Made by a program: the position numbers and the translations under genes. Shown piece after piece: positions 2,334-50,317 of a stretch of 64,000 nt of DNA. Source of the DNA: Octopus vulgaris (Eukaryota); contig OX597840.1 in the NCBI GenBank assembly GCA_951406725.2, forward strand, positions 12,214,001 through 12,278,000, read 5' to 3'. The first letter of the stretch is position 1. Each line of letters starts with the position of its first letter. Below the pieces are notes generated by a model. The model ran no database searches. It saw only the letters and a program-made list of their open reading frames with translations, and was not told where the DNA came from.

Positions 2334-3668
2334 TTACATTTGCAAGACCATTTCTGGTGTTTCGCGATTAAGAGGCTTCCGTTCGGTGTGGATCTGTTTG
2401 TGTCTTGTTAAGTGACTGTTGGTGATAAAAGATTTCCCACACACCTCACAGCTGTATGGTTTTTCTCCCGTGTGGCTGCGGATGTGGGTGACAAGATGGG
2501 AATTATTCATGTAAGACTTCCCACATACCTCACAGTGATAGGGTTTTTCCCCAGTGTGACTTCGTTTGTGGATGACAAGGTTCGAATTGTTAGAAAAAGA
2601 CTTTTCACATATATCGCAATGAAACAGTTTTTCCCTGTTGTGTATTCGTTTGTGACTGATTAAATAACTATTATCGATAAAAGCTTTCCCACACACTTTG
2701 CAATGATAGGGTTTTTCCCCTGTATGGATTCGTTTGTGGACAACAAAGTTCGAATTATAATTGAAAGATTTGCCACATGTCTCACAATGAAACGGTTTTT
2801 CTCCCGTGTGGATAATTTTATGCCTTGTTAAATTACTGTTATTAACGAAAGACTTCCCACATATTACACAGTGGAAGGACTTCTCCCCAGTATGGGCCCT
2901 TTTGTGGGTCATTAATTTGGTGTTAGACACAAACGACTTTTCGCATATTTCACAACGGAAAGGTTTTTCTCCTGTGTGACTACGAATGTGGGTAACAAGA
3001 TTCGAGTTTTTCGTGAACGATCGTTCACATATCTGACAGTGGAACAGTTTCTCTTCGTTATGTATTCTTCTGTGGCTTGTCAAATAATTATTGCCGACGA
3101 ATGATTTCCCACAGATTTCACAGTGATACGGTTTTTCCCCAGTATGTATTCGTCTGTGGATAACAAGTTTCGAATTATAATTGAAAGATTTCCCACAGAC
3201 TTCACAGTGAAAAGCCTTTCCTCCTGCGTGAATTCGATTATGACTTGTCAAGTCGCTGTTCGAGACAAAAGACTTCTCACAAATGAGACACTGGAACGAT
3301 TTCGACCCCATGTGTATTCTTCTGTGTCTGTTTAAATCGCCGTTCGAGGCAAAACATTTCCCACATATCTCACAACAGTAGGATTTTTCTCCCGTGTGTA
3401 CCAAGTTGTGTCTGGTTAACTTACTGTTAGAAACAAAGGCTTTCCCGCAGACTTCACAGCGGAAAACTTTCACCTTGTGTATTTCTGTGTGTGTGAATAA
3501 TTCATGTTGTGAAAAAAAGGTTTTACTGCAAATATCGCAGCGATATTCCGTGATATTTCTCTGATCCGTGAATGCTTCGTCGCATGAAGACTTCTCACCA
3601 TTGAATGTCTCTGGAACGGAATCGACATCGTTAAAAACCGTTTTATCCGAAGTATTAACGTCTTCCAT
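2334..3668 (-). CDS. C2H2 zinc-finger protein, 14 tandem fingers, single coding exon (444 aa)
   Basis: 14 C-x2-C-x12-H-x3-H units, mostly joined by TGEKP/S linkers; intact ATG-to-stop ORF. A candidate 5'-UTR splice acceptor (ttattcag|) lies at 3842-3843 on the - strand. Confidence 0.96.
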   Translation of the reverse strand: MEDVNTSDKTVFNDVDSVPETFNGEKSSCDEAFTDQRNITEYRCDICSKTFFSQHELFTHTEIHKVKVFRCEVCGKAFVSNSKLTRHNLVHTGEKSYCCEICGKCFASNGDLNRHRRIHMGSKSFQCLICEKSFVSNSDLTSHNRIHAGGKAFHCEVCGKSFNYNSKLVIHRRIHTGEKPYHCEICGKSFVGNNYLTSHRRIHNEEKLFHCQICERSFTKNSNLVTHIRSHTGEKPFRCEICEKSFVSNTKLMTHKRAHTGEKSFHCVICGKSFVNNSNLTRHKIIHTGEKPFHCETCGKSFNYNSNFVVHKRIHTGEKPYHCKVCGKAFIDNSYLISHKRIHNREKLFHCDICEKSFSNNSNLVIHKRSHTGEKPYHCEVCGKSYMNNSHLVTHIRSHTGEKPYSCEVCGKSFITNSHLTRHKQIHTERKPLNRETPEMVLQM

Positions 3669-4639
3669 ATTAATTAACCAGGAATTCTTAAAAGCAGAAG
3701 AAATGTCTGTGACTATGATCGATTATGGTTCGGTTTCTTGCCTTGGATATCTCTGAATTCTGTTTACATGATTAAATCCAATTAACAGAATTAAATGTCA
3801 AGCTGGGAAGCAGGCGGTGTCGACCATCAAATTTCCCTTGTCTGAATAACACCGGTGACATACGTTAAATGTCCCTAAGTAAGTGACTATCTTTAAATGC
3901 ATTAAAACACTGTAACATGATCTGAACACTATTTCAGAAAGTTATAACCAATCTCATTGAGCATATAAAAAGACAAATTTAGATGGGGCAAAACGAGTAA
4001 GACAAGTTAAGGTAAATTTACCTTTTGAATTCCCTAGAATTAATACATTCAGAAACTCCTGTTACAATAATTTACTCCTTTAACACTATCTAACCTACGT
4101 TAAAAAGAAAAAAAGAAAGGAAAATCATTGACTAAAATAATTGTTGTGTACCAACGAAGAAGCTTCGAAGCAACATTTTTTTCTTTTAAGAAATGGGCTG
4201 CAAAAGACATGACCCATCACCTGGCAGACCACACTAAAAAAAAAACAAAAAAACATCAAGGTAATTTTTCTTTGGTCTTCCATTCAGAAAGTCCCACGGG
4301 CTGTGGTTTGCCAGTGACTGCTCTATATTGTCGTTCGACCTACTATAAAAAGCAGTCAAATTTTATTTGAATCACAACCTACTCTTTCAGTAGAGTGAAC
4401 TATATATTCACCAATGTATTCCAAGATAGGAAAAAAACCCCAAAATCTGAATAAAAAACAAAACGAAACGAAACGAAACTCGATGGTCACTCTTGAAACA
4501 CCTTTCATCATAGGTGAGATCAATGATGTTGATATTGAGCTTAAGCAACACTGTATTGGTATAAGAATTTGGGGCGGGGTACAATAAGGTGTTTAACTGC
4601 ACTTTTGACTTGGAGAAGAAATGTTTATAGCGCACTATA

Positions 4640-16333: not shown

Positions 16334-16588
16334 ATGGCACCGCAGCATTCTGCCACAGTCAGATATTTTCATGTATTGTATCTCATCCTGCTTCCTTTCT
16401 GCGAAGGATTCTCCATTGACCATACACTCATAGAAGGAAATGTTGGAGGCAAAATAGCTGAAACTGTTGTGATCCTTGTAAAATCTCAGAATATTTTGAT
16501 GGAAGATTATTCTTTCCTCCGCAGACTGGCAGCTGTCCAAAGTAACGATGGTATACCATTCACTCCTGATAAAGGTGGCATCTGGAGG
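16334..16588 (+). CDS. Secreted lysozyme-like/chitin-binding protein, coding exon 1 (signal peptide and start of the lysozyme/SLT-like domain)
   Basis: Acceptor tttctttcag| at 16210. ATG at 16334 gives MAPQHSATVRYFHVLYLILLPFCEG-FS (signal-peptide-like) ... FLRRLAAVQSNDG...GGIWR, then donor |gtaagg, phase 0. Confidence 0.85.
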
Positions 16589-16640
16589 GTAAGGTTCTAT
16601 AATCTTTTCTGTTTCTTTGTTTCTACTTTCCTTCTTTCTC

Positions 16641-23596: not shown

Positions 23597-23876
23597 GTTA
23601 CCACTGACCAACTCGAGACTGTCCAAGAGGCATGTGGTAAAAGCCTATTGTCTTACTGCAATATCGGTCAAGAAAGATTCAATGTGGAAATGGTATCAGC
23701 CAATTACACAGAACTGGACAAGCCATTGTATTCTGGCTACGCCATGGCCCTCTACCTATTGACCCTCGGTGATATTATACCAATGAATTTGACCGACCAA
23801 GCAGAATATTGGAAGAAATTTATTGTACCTGAAGGAAATGTCACCACTTTTATACAAAATACTAACATTCCAGAAG
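23597..23876 (+). CDS. Secreted lysozyme-like/chitin-binding protein, coding exon 2
   Basis: Acceptor ttctag|, phase 0, in frame with exon 1: VTTDQLETVQEAC...LDKPLYSGYAMALYLL...IPMNLTDQAEYWKKF...NIPE-G; donor |gtaag, phase 1. Confidence 0.85.
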
Positions 23877-24531
23877 GTAAGAAAACTACCGAAAGATCTT
23901 TATTGTTGTTGTTAAACCTCTTGTCTTTTATCTTTTACTTGTTTCAGTCATCAGACTGTGGCCATGCAGGAGCATCACCCTGAAGAATGAATTGACTGCA
24001 GAGCTTTTTTTTTTTTTAAGCTTGGTACTTATTTTATCAGTAACATATTGAATACTGGTTCAATTTACTATATACTGTCTGGGTATTATTAATGTAAACA
24101 CCCAAGGCAGTGAGCTGGCAGAATCATTAGCACGCTGGGCAAAATGCTGAGCGGTATTTCGTCTGCCGTTATGTTCCGAGTTCAAATTCTGCCGAGGTCG
24201 ACTTTACCTTTCATCTTTTTGGGGTCGATTAAATAAGTACCAGTTATGCACTGGGGTTGATATAATCAAGTTAATCTGTTTGTCTGTCCTTGTTTGTCCT
24301 CTCTGTGTTTAGCTTCTTGTGGGTAGTAAAGAAATAGGTATTTTGTCTGTCTTTAATTTCTGAGTTCAAATTCCGCTGAGGTCGACTTTGCCTTTCATCC
24401 TTTCGGGGTCGATATAATCGACTGACTCTTCTCTCTCAAAATTTCAGGCCTTGTGCCTAGAGTAGAAAAGAATGTCTTACTCTTATTGATTGAATTATTT
24501 TGGCTTTCCTTTTTTCTTCTTTCCATTTCAG

Positions 24532-24908
24532 TGCCGGACCAATGTAGAAAATCCGAAGACACACCAAGGAATGAAGTGGAATCTTACTGTTTATTCCAGT
24601 CACCGTGTACAAGAGAAGCGATTGCACTCAAAATATATTTCTTTGCTCATTCAGATCCGACGAGATTCATTCGGTGTACGGAATGGGGAGCTAGTTTCAT
24701 TCAAATCTGTGTTCCTGGCACCGTATGGTCTCAAATGAATGTTACATGTTTACACAAGGCAGGAAGTTTTATCTTTAGACGCAAAAAAGGTGGAGGAACC
24801 AAGGACAAGCATTATCTCAACAATGCATCTCATATTTTCTCTGCTTTACTTCCTTGCTTAATGTTCTGTCTTCTTCAAGCATTCATCTTAAATAAGAGTT
24901 TCTTCTAA
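24532..24908 (+). CDS. Secreted lysozyme-like/chitin-binding protein, coding exon 3 (CBM14/peritrophin-A-like domain and GPI-like tail)
   Basis: Long polypyrimidine acceptor ttccatttcag|; phase 1 matches exon 2. Six Cys including SPCT...HSDPTRFIRCTEWG...ICVPGTVWSQMNVTC; ends NNAS + hydrophobic HIFSALLPCLMFCLLQAFIL and TAA. Spliced CDS is 912 nt, 303 aa. Confidence 0.82.
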
Positions 24909-26266: not shown

Positions 26267-26414
26267 GGTTTGGAGATGATGTCCAGGTATTATATATTAG
26301 AAGAAATGAGGTACTCAGAAATCTGGATTGTTTTTATATTTACAGATATTTATCTGTAAATACAGATAATATCTGTAAATATAAAACCATCCAGATTTCT
26401 GAGTACCTCATTTC

Positions 26415-26425
<11 letters not shown>
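25925..26425. mobile_element. Two palindromic Penelope-like pLTR fragments separated by (TA)n
   Basis: Inverted arms at about 26008-26118 / 26123-26232, and a second hairpin at about 26292-26425. Confidence 0.65.
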
Positions 26426-26457
<32 letters not shown>

Positions 26458-26601
26458 AAATATATATTTATAACTTATAAAATAAGGGCAAGAGAAAAAA
26501 TTCTAATGCCAAATATGCCGAAAAAAGACAAAATTGTCAATAACCATAATAATTTAGGCGTCTCGAAACATGCTGATAGAAATTTCTAAAAAATTCCGTT
26601 A

Positions 26602-26662
26602 TAACCGTATTGGTCCCAATTTCGGGGTTAATTCATAAGAATTTTCCCCTCGTCAGCGATTA
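26602..26662 (-). ncRNA. Type I hammerhead ribozyme motif, copy 1 (in repeat unit about 26470-26885)
   Basis: UAAUCG-CUGACGA-GGGG..CCCC-GAA-AUUGG-GA-CCAAU-A^CGGUUA; intact core, AUA triplet. Confidence 0.85.
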
Positions 26663-26907
26663 ATACGTAAGACATAAATGGAATACTTACTCATACCCAT
26701 GGAAAAAGCAAGCACTAAGTCCCGAGCAGACCTAAGTACCCCAAATATATCCAAAATAGAAAATCTTCAGCACATCTCGAGACATGTGTGATTCGATCTA
26801 GAAACTTTCATAGAGTGAGAGAATCCGGAAGTGAACACAATTAAATTTATAACTAATGTAGGATAAGATTTTTTTCGAAAATACATACATACATATATAT
26901 ATATATT

Positions 26908-27215
26908 GAAAGCTACACCAAGCCAGAATGGGTTGACATTGCAGAGTGCCAAAGATCCCAGCAATGCCATAGTGCTTCTTGACCAGTTACTGCAACAGCC
27001 TGGGTTTCAGGGGTCCACAGCTTTTTGATATTCTCCCGAAGAGCCTGAGGAACCTGCACAAAATGGATGTAGGTGTTTTCAAATAAAAACTAGACCTCTT
27101 CCTTTTGAGAGTCCCAGATGAACCTACCTCACGTCAAGAGGTGCAAATGAGGGTAGCTACATCAAACTCCATTCTTCACCAAGTGCTACATATTAGAAGA
27201 GGCTGTCAATAATAA
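26908..27215 (+). mobile_element. CR1/L2-group LINE ORF2 3' fragment
   Basis: Reads, with stops, ...YCNSLGFRGPQLFDILPKSLRNLHKMDVGVFK*KLDLFLLRVPDEP...ATSNSILHQ. Confidence 0.75.
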
Positions 27216-27433
27216 CAGTGTAGCAAAATGGCAGTGCTCCAGCATGACCACAGCTCTGAGCTGAAACTACACTATATATATATACATATACAACTTATAA
27301 ATAAGGGCAAACGAAAAAAATTTCTAATGCCAAATATGCCGAAAATTGGACATATTGTCCATTACAATATAATTTATCACAATACGCAAGCTACTCAAAA
27401 AAAACCGACAGAAATTTCTAAAAAATTCTATCA

Positions 27434-27493
27434 TTACCATATCGGACCGATTTCAGGGTTAGTTCGTAAGAACCCTCCCTTCGTCAGTGATAA
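27434..27493 (-). ncRNA. Type I hammerhead ribozyme motif, copy 2 (in repeat unit about 27290-27625)
   Basis: UUAUCA-CUGACGA-AGGG..CCCU-GAA-AUCGG-U-CCGAU-A^UGGUAA; compensatory changes relative to copy 1 in all three stems. Confidence 0.85.
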
Positions 27494-27629
27494 ATGTGGC
27501 AAAGAAATAAATGAGATACTTACTCATACCCATGGAAGAAGCAAAACACTAAGTCATGAGCACAATTAAGTACCCCAAATACATCCAAATATGCTGGCCA
27601 TTGATAAAATTTTTTTTCGAAAAAAATTT

Positions 27630-28724
27630 TAAGCTTGCTGACCAACCACATGGTTCCGGGTTCAGTCCCACTGCATGGCATCTTGGGCAAGTGTCTTCTG
27701 CTATAGCCCCGGGCCGACCAATGCCTTGTGAGTGGATTTGGTAGAAGGGAAACTGAAAGAAGCCTGTCGTATATATGTATGTATATATAAGCGTGTGTGT
27801 ATATGTTTGTGTGTCTGTGTTTGTTCCCCTAGCATTGCTTGACAACCGATGCTGGTGTGTTTACGTCCCCGTCACTTAGCGGTTCGGCAAAAGAGACCGG
27901 TAGAATAAGTACTGGGCTTACAAAGAATAAGTCTCGGGGTCGATTTGCTCGACTAAAGGCGGTGCTCCAGCATGGCCGCAGTCAAATGACGGAAACAAGT
28001 AAAAGAGTAAAGAGAGTATATATATACATACGCTGAATAAAATCATAATCATAAAATCTTAATCAATTGATCCTCCTGTGTTTTCTTTTAACCCAAACCA
28101 GGAACTTCTTAGCAACCGCTCATATGTGTGTGTGTGTGTGTGTGTGTGTGAGAACACTGAGAAGCTCCCGAGGAGCCCCAGTGTCTAGAGGGCTTATTCT
28201 GATTCCTGTATGCTTCACTTCATGTCCAGTAAGTTCACTATCACCAATTCACCATTTTCTTACCTTCTATAAAAGAGTTTTTAACTATTAATGGTGAGAT
28301 AGTATCATTTTTACTTGTTTTAGTCATTTGATGAAGGGATATAATAAATATCCTGGAAACAGCTGTAAGACCTTTAGTCAAGCAACTCGACCCCAGGACT
28401 TATTCTTTGTAAGCCTAGCACTTATTCTATCAGCTGAACTGCTATGTTACGGGGACGTAAACACACTAGCATCGGTTATCAAGCGATGGTGGGAGACAAA
28501 CACAGACCACACAAACAAATATACTCACACCTCCACACACATATTTTATATATATATATATATAGGCGGAGGACTGGCTGTGTGGTAAGTAGCTTGCTTA
28601 CCAACCACATGGTTCCGGGTTCTGTCCCACTGTGTGGCACCTTGGGCAAGTGTCTTCTACTATAGCCTCGGGCTGACCAAAGCCTTGTGAAGGATTTGGT
28701 AGACGGAAACTGAAAGAAGCCCGT

Positions 28725-42042: not shown

Positions 42043-43713
42043 TTGCGTCGGAAATTAATTAGCACTTCTCAAATTTCTACATTTTCTTACATTTTCTTAA
42101 TTTAATTAACTCGTTTTTAATCAAAAATTTATTAAAACATATCCCAGCACACCACATAATTGTTATTAATCGTGAAATTTAGTCAATATCTTGTTGCTCC
42201 TCCTTTGGCAGCAATGACAGCTGCTACGCTGGTCGGCATGCTGTCTATGAGTGTCTGCAGGTACTGTGCAGGGATGGCCCTCCATGCAGCAAGAAGTGCC
42301 TCAAACAGCTCGTGTCGGTTCCTGTATTGCTGCACATTCAAATCCCTACCCAATCGACTCCAGAGGTTCTCAATAGGGTTCAGGTCAGGTGACCGGCCAG
42401 GCCAGTCCATGACCGTCACCCCATGGTCCTTGAAAAAACCGGTTGTGAGCTTGGCTGTGTGGGAAGGCGCGTTGTCCTGCTGGAGCATGTACTCCTCGCC
42501 ACCAAAGAGGTATCCCGTACTATCTCAACGTACTTTGCTGCGTTGATGTTGCCTTCGACGGCATAGAGCCGCCCAACACCACTGTAGCTGAACGCCCCTC
42601 ACACCATCAGACCACCCCCACCATGCTTCATGGTGGGAGCAATGTGGTCTTTGTTGAAGTGCTCACATGGACAGGCTTGTCACTGACGAGACTGAATCGC
42701 GACTCGTCAGTGAACATCACTGTCCGCCACTGCTGCACGGTCCATATCTTGTGGGCACGGGCCCAGAGCAACCGCCTCTTCCGGTTTTGGGCTGTAAGGA
42801 GCGGCTTACGGGCGGCCCTACAGGATTTTAGACCAGCTTCCAGTAATCTGGTCTTGACGGTGGTTGTAGACAACTGCTTCCCTGTCATCTTTTGCATCTC
42901 CTCCGCCAGTTGCCGGCTCGTTGCCCTTCAGTTGTACAGTGACTTTCGGATCAGCATCCGGTCCTCCCGCTGGGTCGTCAGCCTCTTCCGTCCCCTACCC
43001 TTTTTGTCAGCTGCTGATCCAGTTTCCTCGTATTTCTTAAATAAGCACTGAATTGTGCGCCTGGCTACACCAAGTTTTCTGGCTATTGCAGCCTCCGACA
43101 GCTTCCCACGCCACGAGAGAGCCTCGTATCATCTCTCCAAGGTCATGCGAGGTCTTGGGCCCATCTAGGAATGAACGATAAAAACCAGTTATTTTCATTA
43201 AAACTATTCATTTGAATAATGTTATGCTATAACAAAACTGCTATGAGTTATTATTCATGAAACAAAAAAGAAAGAAAGCAGAATTTCTCACCTATTTGAT
43301 GTATAACAGAAAGTTTTGTGAACCGGAAGTGACGTCACCAAGCAGAGTGTAGGAGAATTTGTGAGGAAAAAAATCTTGCAAATACACAAATCAATTAACC
43401 TATGAGCTGTTCAAAACATCTTACGCGATGAGAAAACTTAGTACGGTGTGATTTCGGTCCTTGCGAGGCGCTACCTATATCTATTAAACAAAGGAAGATT
43501 TGTCTGCATCCGCACTCCAAGTTGTTGTTGCACTGCTATGTCAACATCATTAGGCTGTAGACTCTCAAACCGCTCTGCAAACAAAATTACGTCATCGTTC
43601 TGCGCAACAGTGAACTCGCAACAAAGCAATAGTTCAAGATATGGCCACTAGGTGACAGCAAATACCTTGAGTGAAGAGCAAATCAAGGTGCTAATTAATT
43701 TCTGACGGTAGTG
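42040..43713 (-). mobile_element. Tc1 transposon (DD34E), TIR to TIR, inactive
   Basis: TA TSD; 26-bp TIRs CACT(TG/AC)CGTC(G/A)GAAATTAATTAGCAC. Transposase 43164 to 42183 has an HTH region, GRGRK, FTDESRF and QQDNAPSH...SPDLNPIE with 34 aa between D and E; in-frame TGA stops and frameshifts. Confidence 0.93.
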
Positions 43714-49818: not shown

Positions 49819-49968
49819 ACACACACAAACACACACACACACATTTGTGTGTCAGTTCACATTACTCCATAGGACTGGTTTCCTGATTTCTCTGGCGCGT
49901 AACCACTAATCCTTGCAGCTCCACTACCGGAACCTAAACAGCTCAAATATCTTATTTTTCCATTGCAG

Positions 49969-50181
49969 CTGAGTTCAAATCCCTTTCCTGGTCACAAGAG
50001 AAAGGACGACCCCGTTCATCTCGAGAATTACAACATTTTAAATGTCAGCCATGAAAGCTCCGCAGAAGAAGTACGAGAAGCTTATATACGACTTGCGAAA
50101 AAGTTTCATCCAGACAGTGGATCGGAGAATGCCAACCCCCAAAAATTTGCCCAGATCCAAGATGCTTATTACTCAATTATG
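49969..50181 (+). CDS. DNAJC28: DNAJC28 J-domain exon
   Basis: Acceptor cattgcag|; NYNILNV...EVREAYIRLAKKFHPDSGSENA...FAQIQDAY with the HPD motif in the HPDSGS context I recall from DNAJC28; donor |gtttgt, phase 0. Confidence 0.9.
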
Positions 50182-50317
50182 GTTTGTGTTTTTTAATTCT
50201 TTTATTGCTTTCAGTTGTTAGACAGTGACCATGCTGGGGCACTGTCCTCAAGGGTTTTAAGATGTTAATATCAACACCATTGTTAGTTTGGTCTTATTGT
50301 GTCTCATCTCTCTCTCT

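Follow-up and report, generated by a model that had tools for sequence, protein, structure and literature searches.

Two type I hammerhead ribozyme motifs were read from the sequence on the - strand between positions 26,300 and 27,800 of a 64,000-nucleotide stretch of Octopus vulgaris DNA (the window), and they raise the question of whether the pair works as one unit that excises an RNA from a longer transcript or consists of separate copies of a more widespread element. The two motifs, hereafter units A and B, are located as follows.

27434..27493, - strand: type I hammerhead of subfamily A (unit A), predicted cut 27440/27439; stem I 27493-27488 with 27439-27434, CUGACGA 27487-27481, GAAA 27454-27451, H17 at 27440
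26602..26662, - strand: type I hammerhead of subfamily B (unit B), predicted cut 26608/26607; stem I 26662-26657 with 26607-26602, CUGACGA 26656-26650, GAAA 26623-26620, H17 at 26608

Recomputed coordinates place both cores where the sequence-only reading had noted them, with the predicted cuts 832 nt apart. In each unit the CUGANGA, GAAA and NUH core elements surround three helices with helix I open, the arrangement that defines a type I hammerhead. The four double substitutions described earlier in stems I to III are all present in the sequence, including the one in stem II; that stem, however, is longer than had been stated and consists of a 4-bp and a 5-bp segment separated by a 2x2 internal loop and closed by a 4-nt loop, its distal part adding a fifth double change and one G-U/A-U change. 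Units A and B differ at 11 of 38 stem positions, with pairing preserved by 11 of 11, at 10 of 28 loop or flanking positions, and at 0 of 12 core positions, in agreement with the invariant core claimed at the outset. The bare core pattern occurs 8 times in the window versus 5.1 expected, which is not above chance, and searches of the window with the Rfam hammerhead models gave no match at the gathering score, nor at E<=10; this miss reflects a limit of the library models, and a model match is not a defining feature of the hammerhead fold. Judged by their sequences, both motifs are real hammerheads, and their cleavage itself is a prediction. For a loop I/loop II tertiary contact, the 2x2 internal loop conserved in stem II is at most a candidate.

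The window hammerheads are copies of two subfamilies of a non-coding repeat dispersed through the 2.8-Gb genome. Relatives of units A and B are many and lie on many contigs, with 91-97% identity among the best 40 candidates scored. Genome-wide, exact 26-mers gave 131 matches for A, 423 for B and 0 for the control; a looser pattern gave 1,376 matches versus 9 with a reversed control, and a second pattern gave at least 2,088 intact-core matches versus 0 for its control. About seven subfamilies of the repeat are seen among the pattern matches, and the labels A-G were assigned within this analysis. Copies of the repeat are circularly permuted; the period is 478 bp in A and 463 bp in B, and monomers measure 460-497 bp across the family. 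At 478 and 463 nt, these monomers lie slightly above the 150-450 bp range quoted for non-LTR retrozymes (PMC7229834). Natural direct dimers (L014, L032, L043, L051, L052 and L141) have hammerheads spaced 460-497 bp apart, and each is built from one subfamily only. Head-to-tail units each bearing a type I hammerhead, the mark of a retrozyme, are thus found in the dimers of the family and not in the window pair; no long head-to-tail arrays were seen, the longest holding about two units. The monomers are non-coding, with no Pfam match in overlapping frames and a local GC of 34%. A long hairpin upstream of the hammerhead appears in single folds but was not recovered in the consensus fold of 79 copies, and we did not retain it.

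The family allows the pairing to be examined well beyond the two window units. Across 98 distinct copies, 95.4% of cells are paired and 7 of 20 pairs have changed on both sides, compared with 27-48% paired in slid controls of the same alignment; across 23 distinct rows from seven subfamilies, 95.0% are paired and again 7/20 pairs have changed on both sides. In these larger alignments, of the kind to which the sequence-only reading had tied its proposal, percent paired and covariation score exceed all 500 shuffles (500/500), but the count of covarying pairs does not lie beyond them (104/500 for the 98 copies, 25/500 for the 23 rows), and behind the 7 covarying pairs stand about seven events at the subfamily level, a small number of independent changes. 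Covariation is found in all three helices, upholding the initial proposal that the structure was selected in the source elements, and these sequence comparisons support a hammerhead fold under selection there. The core and cleavage triplet are kept in 80 of the 98 sampled copies, a conservation partly built in because the rows were picked by a fuzzy core pattern. N7, the tolerant position of the hammerhead core, is free to vary (C 54, A 16, G 10, U 9).

To describe how the copies are inserted, 80 insertions were placed on natural arrays, this set being what was left of 89 loci once 7 duplicates and 2 references had been taken out, using references trimmed of trailing TA repeats, the ends of which coincide with the second fixed end described here. 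Outer 3' ends fall at two fixed sites in 107 of 122 cases, 61 at about 150 nt and 46 at about 220-245 nt downstream of the cut, and the 38 outer 5' ends of the 80 insertions are scattered. An inverted piece is present in 43/80 insertions, 27 of these 43 having one short and one tailed end, and (TA)n adjoins 95 of the 122 3' ends versus a background of 14% in the flanks. A pile-up of 5' ends at a second cut site was not found (3/79 within 10 nt). Copies at least one period long make up 8 of 25 pattern-chosen copies, and those running past one period re-enter the monomer, not an ORF. The fixed 3' end, 5' truncation, inverted 5' copy, one-sided tail and microsatellite target are those of Penelope-like elements (PLEs); 5' truncation, partial tandems, an inverted 5' copy, a one-sided tail and microsatellite targets have been described for EN+ PLEs (PMC8557442).

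Enzymes of this type are encoded in the same genome. Of the 6,136 candidates in a GIY-YIG search, 150 were scored and 148 of them matched, and autonomous elements with 781-aa ORFs combining RT and GIY-YIG coexist with the repeat and have TA flanks and two alternative 3' ends. Apart from inserted repeat copies and one 48-bp AT-rich match, no homology to the monomer was found in 39 GIY-YIG loci with their flanks, and none in 14 loci of another PLE family (the one fused to repeat copy L036); nor was homology of the monomer to a PLE pLTR seen in the PLE loci sampled, which cover few families. Because no sequence links the sampled PLEs to the monomer, a PLE partner can be inferred but not named. 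PLE protein matches occur at 6 of 114 hammerhead loci; in 4 of the 5 inspected they are separated from the repeat by TA tracts or other sequence, and the fifth, L036, holds a mid-endonuclease PLE fragment.

Several features of individual PLE loci are recorded here in their own right. At L036 (1886-2244), an inverted tail piece links the PLE endonuclease fragment directly with the 5' end of a B copy; we do not count this junction as proof of template switching, as it is 1/114 loci and the repeat copy looks younger than the PLE sequence next to it. A two-ORF, TA-flanked PLE family encodes a 479-aa ORF1 and the 781-aa RT/GIY-YIG protein (L082 5183, L079 - strand 900, L071, L074, L092 and others), and this family and its relatives carry a hammerhead-like motif with U3/A8 for C3/G8 and a palindromic minimal stem III, the same core covariation as is reported for Schistosoma PLEs (PMC4209133). 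In a second PLE family (L086 4921, L087 4806), a minimal standard-core hammerhead with a palindromic stem III follows the ORF.

We examined monomer and dimer folding in the 80 intact copies among the 98, having dropped 18 for an altered core or triplet. The monomer hammerhead lies 6-9 kcal/mol above the minimum-energy fold and is itself that fold in 2/80 copies, while the double hammerhead is the cofold minimum in 34/80, its energy being lower than that of two monomer hammerheads by about 13 kcal/mol. For window units A and B, the cofold minimum is another structure and not the double hammerhead, and the mixed A/B stem III duplex has an energy of -10.3 kcal/mol versus -13.9 and -12.3. With its innermost pair open, stem III keeps 4 bp and gains a 3-4-nt loop, and since this can form, a monomeric hammerhead could fold too. 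The earlier argument that stem III is too tight for a monomer, which suggested dimeric folding, was therefore overstated in its premise, and its conclusion draws support from the folding energies, which favor the double hammerhead over two monomers and make dimeric folding of the family hammerheads plausible at the level of modeling. Dimer-dependent cleavage is known for amphibian retrozymes (PMC7229834) and has been proposed for PLE hammerheads (PMC4209133), and 8 of 9 Xenopus retrozyme dimers did not cleave in vitro (10.64898/2026.07.22.740005).

Splice-like motifs surround both hammerheads of the window.

27418..27523, - strand: candidate 106-nt intron around hammerhead A, with GTAAGT at 27523 and TTTTTAG at 27424-27418
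26690 and 26592, - strand: the same motifs, GTAAGT and TTTTTAG, around hammerhead B

GTAAGT lies upstream of the hammerhead in 87 of 103 copies and TTTTTAG downstream in 85, so that, from sequence motifs, a 106-nt intron around the ribozyme is possible. A search for spliced genomic copies of the repeat gave 0 matches; as PLEs keep introns, such missing copies neither support nor refute the candidate. In the Penelope element of Drosophila virilis, the end of an intron overlaps the hammerhead (PMC4209133).

With the anatomy of the family established, the window pair resolves into the following parts.

27286..27589, - strand: body of unit A, a 5'-truncated copy of about 300 of 478 bp, running to the first fixed 3' end and then (TA)n (L001 1497-1800)
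27589..27629, + strand: inverted piece of the element's 3' tail at the 5' end of unit A, a Penelope-type inversion (L001 1800-1840)
26465..26881, - strand: body of unit B, about 420 of 463 bp, flanked by (TA)n at either end and ending at the first fixed 3' end (L001 668-1092)
26912..27270, + strand: unrelated LINE 3' fragment, the broken C-terminal end of an RT ORF, antisense to the hammerheads and outside the repeat family

Sequence comparison confirms the antisense LINE 3' fragment reported between the units; its relatives are many, the best being 87-89% identical, and a hammerhead lies near 0 of the 5 relatives examined. Units A and B are 74% identical, far below the identity of each to its own subfamily, and at 0 of 58 other A or B loci does the other subfamily lie within 1.5 kb. 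A uniform model predicts 0.8 to 4.5 chance same-strand unrelated neighbors within 1 kb per genome, an expectation that shared TA targets would raise. From the 74% identity, the intervening LINE, the 0/58 loci and the chance expectation, the preferred reading of the pair is two separate insertions, both at (TA)n, with an older LINE fragment between them; the 832-bp spacing probably follows from copy number and from the (TA)n targets that the copies have in common. The original view of a tandem pair as one unit is not supported, given a family period of 478/463 bp, the 0/58 paired loci, the units' own (TA)n ends and the unrelated, older spacer; the RNA of about 830 nt that double cleavage was to excise would require - strand read-through, for which no evidence was found. 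Contigs identical to the locus (26497-26711, 26734-27010, 26981-27319 and 27315-27478; one run guessed to be RNA) bridge both cut sites, although neither strand nor level can be read from them. Among gene-like exons, the closest are those of the + strand that stop at 24908, and the hammerheads would be antisense to that gene if its 3' UTR reaches them.

We therefore consider it likely that the dispersed 460-500-bp non-coding repeat is a non-LTR retrozyme copied into (TA)n by a Penelope-like RT/GIY-YIG endonuclease, with the window pair as two of its insertions. In the mechanism we propose, source copies of two or more units would be transcribed, and the hammerheads in the multimeric transcript would pair via their self-complementary stem III to form a double hammerhead, which would cut out a monomer that may circularize. 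Reverse transcription by a Penelope enzyme would then begin at a fixed site, some 150 or 220-245 nt downstream of the cut, and yield copies that are 5'-truncated, tandem in part and often inverted. Because the fixed 3' ends are found 150-245 nt further downstream and not at the cut itself, the template is not a cut-to-cut linear monomer copied from its end; fixed ends away from the cut, together with the 8/25 copies of at least one period, leave either a circle or a multimeric transcript as the template. Most genomic copies, the window pair included, are likely dead-end single insertions.

Three other explanations deserve consideration. The copies might be the 5'-truncated ends (solo pseudo-LTRs) of an unsampled autonomous PLE and not a self-propagating retrozyme, a reading that predicts the same insertion anatomy and agrees both with the single and opposite-strand hammerheads that truncated PLEs give (PMC4209133) and with the splice-site-like motifs present on the two sides of the ribozyme in 87 and 85 of 103 copies, an arrangement that 5' introns of PLEs might produce; we nevertheless judge it improbable, since copies beyond one period (8/25 reach at least that length) return to the monomer without an ORF, and PLE protein matches are confined to 6/114 loci, separated from the repeat in 4 of the 5 inspected, with a mid-endonuclease fragment in the fifth. 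Still less credible is a working A-LINE-B cassette, in which a - strand transcript is cut twice and an 832-nt RNA is released that may circularize. Both cores and all stems are intact in the same orientation, and a mixed A/B stem III duplex is possible, though weaker; on the other hand, the arrangement recurs at none of the 58 A or B loci or 5 LINE relatives, the 5' portion of the monomer is missing from unit A, which an inverted tail caps, the closest gene-like exons belong to the + strand and end at 24908, and the locus-identical contigs (one run guessed to be RNA) span both sites, though they do not show the strand.

The hammerhead could also be a structural relic, its pairing kept for another reason in an RNA that no longer cleaves, and competing folds do hide the core in most single copies, the hammerhead being the minimum-energy fold in 2/80. 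We regard this as the most doubtful of the three, because the catalytic core is constant across subfamilies while N7 varies, and window units A and B differ at 0/12 core and 21/66 other positions. Returning to the retrozyme reading, a bolder version of it is speculative and rather unlikely in full: the repeat would still be active as a circular-RNA parasite of Penelope elements that target TA, in which a dimer-only hammerhead within a small spliceosomal-type intron cuts out the ~470-nt monomer, and the Penelope enzyme, priming at a fixed site inside the circle, continues beyond the join. If true, seven subfamilies with natural stem variants would offer a direct test of the role of the hammerhead in the Penelope life cycle.

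The repeat is likely a hammerhead retrozyme family in a cephalopod, joining the known non-LTR retrozymes. The animal elements described by Cervera and de la Pena in 2020, among them Mytilus repeats of 350-390 bp (PMC7229834), are likewise non-coding and low in GC with one type I hammerhead per unit, and occur in thousands of copies with several hammerhead families and coexisting PLEs; in contrast, the octopus monomer is slightly longer (460-497 bp), targets (TA)n and is mostly dispersed in copies of 0.6-1.5 units with inversions instead of long arrays, and its circular RNA is a proposal made here from genomic sequence. Li, Clavereau and Pollet (2026) propose that retrozymes are non-autonomous PLE derivatives (10.64898/2026.07.22.740005). 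Their case is built on co-occurrence and on homology to pLTRs, for the most part in vertebrates, and the main text mentions neither molluscs nor octopus. The octopus family fits the retrozyme-PLE partnership proposed there; unlike those cases, it lacks pLTR homology in the sampled loci, and its insertions bear the PLE footprint directly. This Penelope footprint supports the partnership by mechanism and not by co-occurrence, and it is here that the family matters, the window pair itself being of little importance.

Compared with EN+ PLEs and pLTR hammerheads (PMC4209133, PMC8557442), the octopus repeat shares the 5' truncation, partial tandems, inverted 5' copy, one-end tail and microsatellite targets, as well as a long helix II and a self-complementary helix III suited to dimers; it differs in having no ORF, a helix III of 5 bp per arm that is not minimal, and a tail of about 70-90 bp versus 30-40 bp. 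The repeat annotation of Octopus vulgaris lists Penelope-like families (PMC13282606), and the words ribozyme, hammerhead and retrozyme are absent from its main text. In the openly searchable literature we found no report of octopus hammerheads or retrozymes, and supplements may list cephalopod hammerheads.

Other features of the window were noted around the pair.

27630..27800, + strand: abundant repeat without its first ~30 nt, reading away from the hammerheads, with very high cover and loose ends
16334-16590, 23597-23877 and 24531-24908, + strand: three likely exons of a secreted protein, assigned by eye
2334-3722, - strand: C2H2 zinc-finger array exon, assigned by eye
42186-43128, - strand: broken Tc1-type transposon
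49903-50196, + strand: DnaJ-domain exon

We take the repeat at 27630..27800 to be of the SINE type, with box motifs as read here. The three likely exons gave no Pfam match at E<=0.001; by eye, their protein starts like a signal peptide, has cysteines spaced much as in chitin-binding domains and ends in a hydrophobic stretch similar to a GPI signal. In two runs of a single study there is an A-type copy, originating elsewhere, that has 6 letters in place of the stretch 27484-27544. Adjoining unit B at 26300-26420 is a near-perfect inverted repeat of ~120 bp, which is MITE-like.
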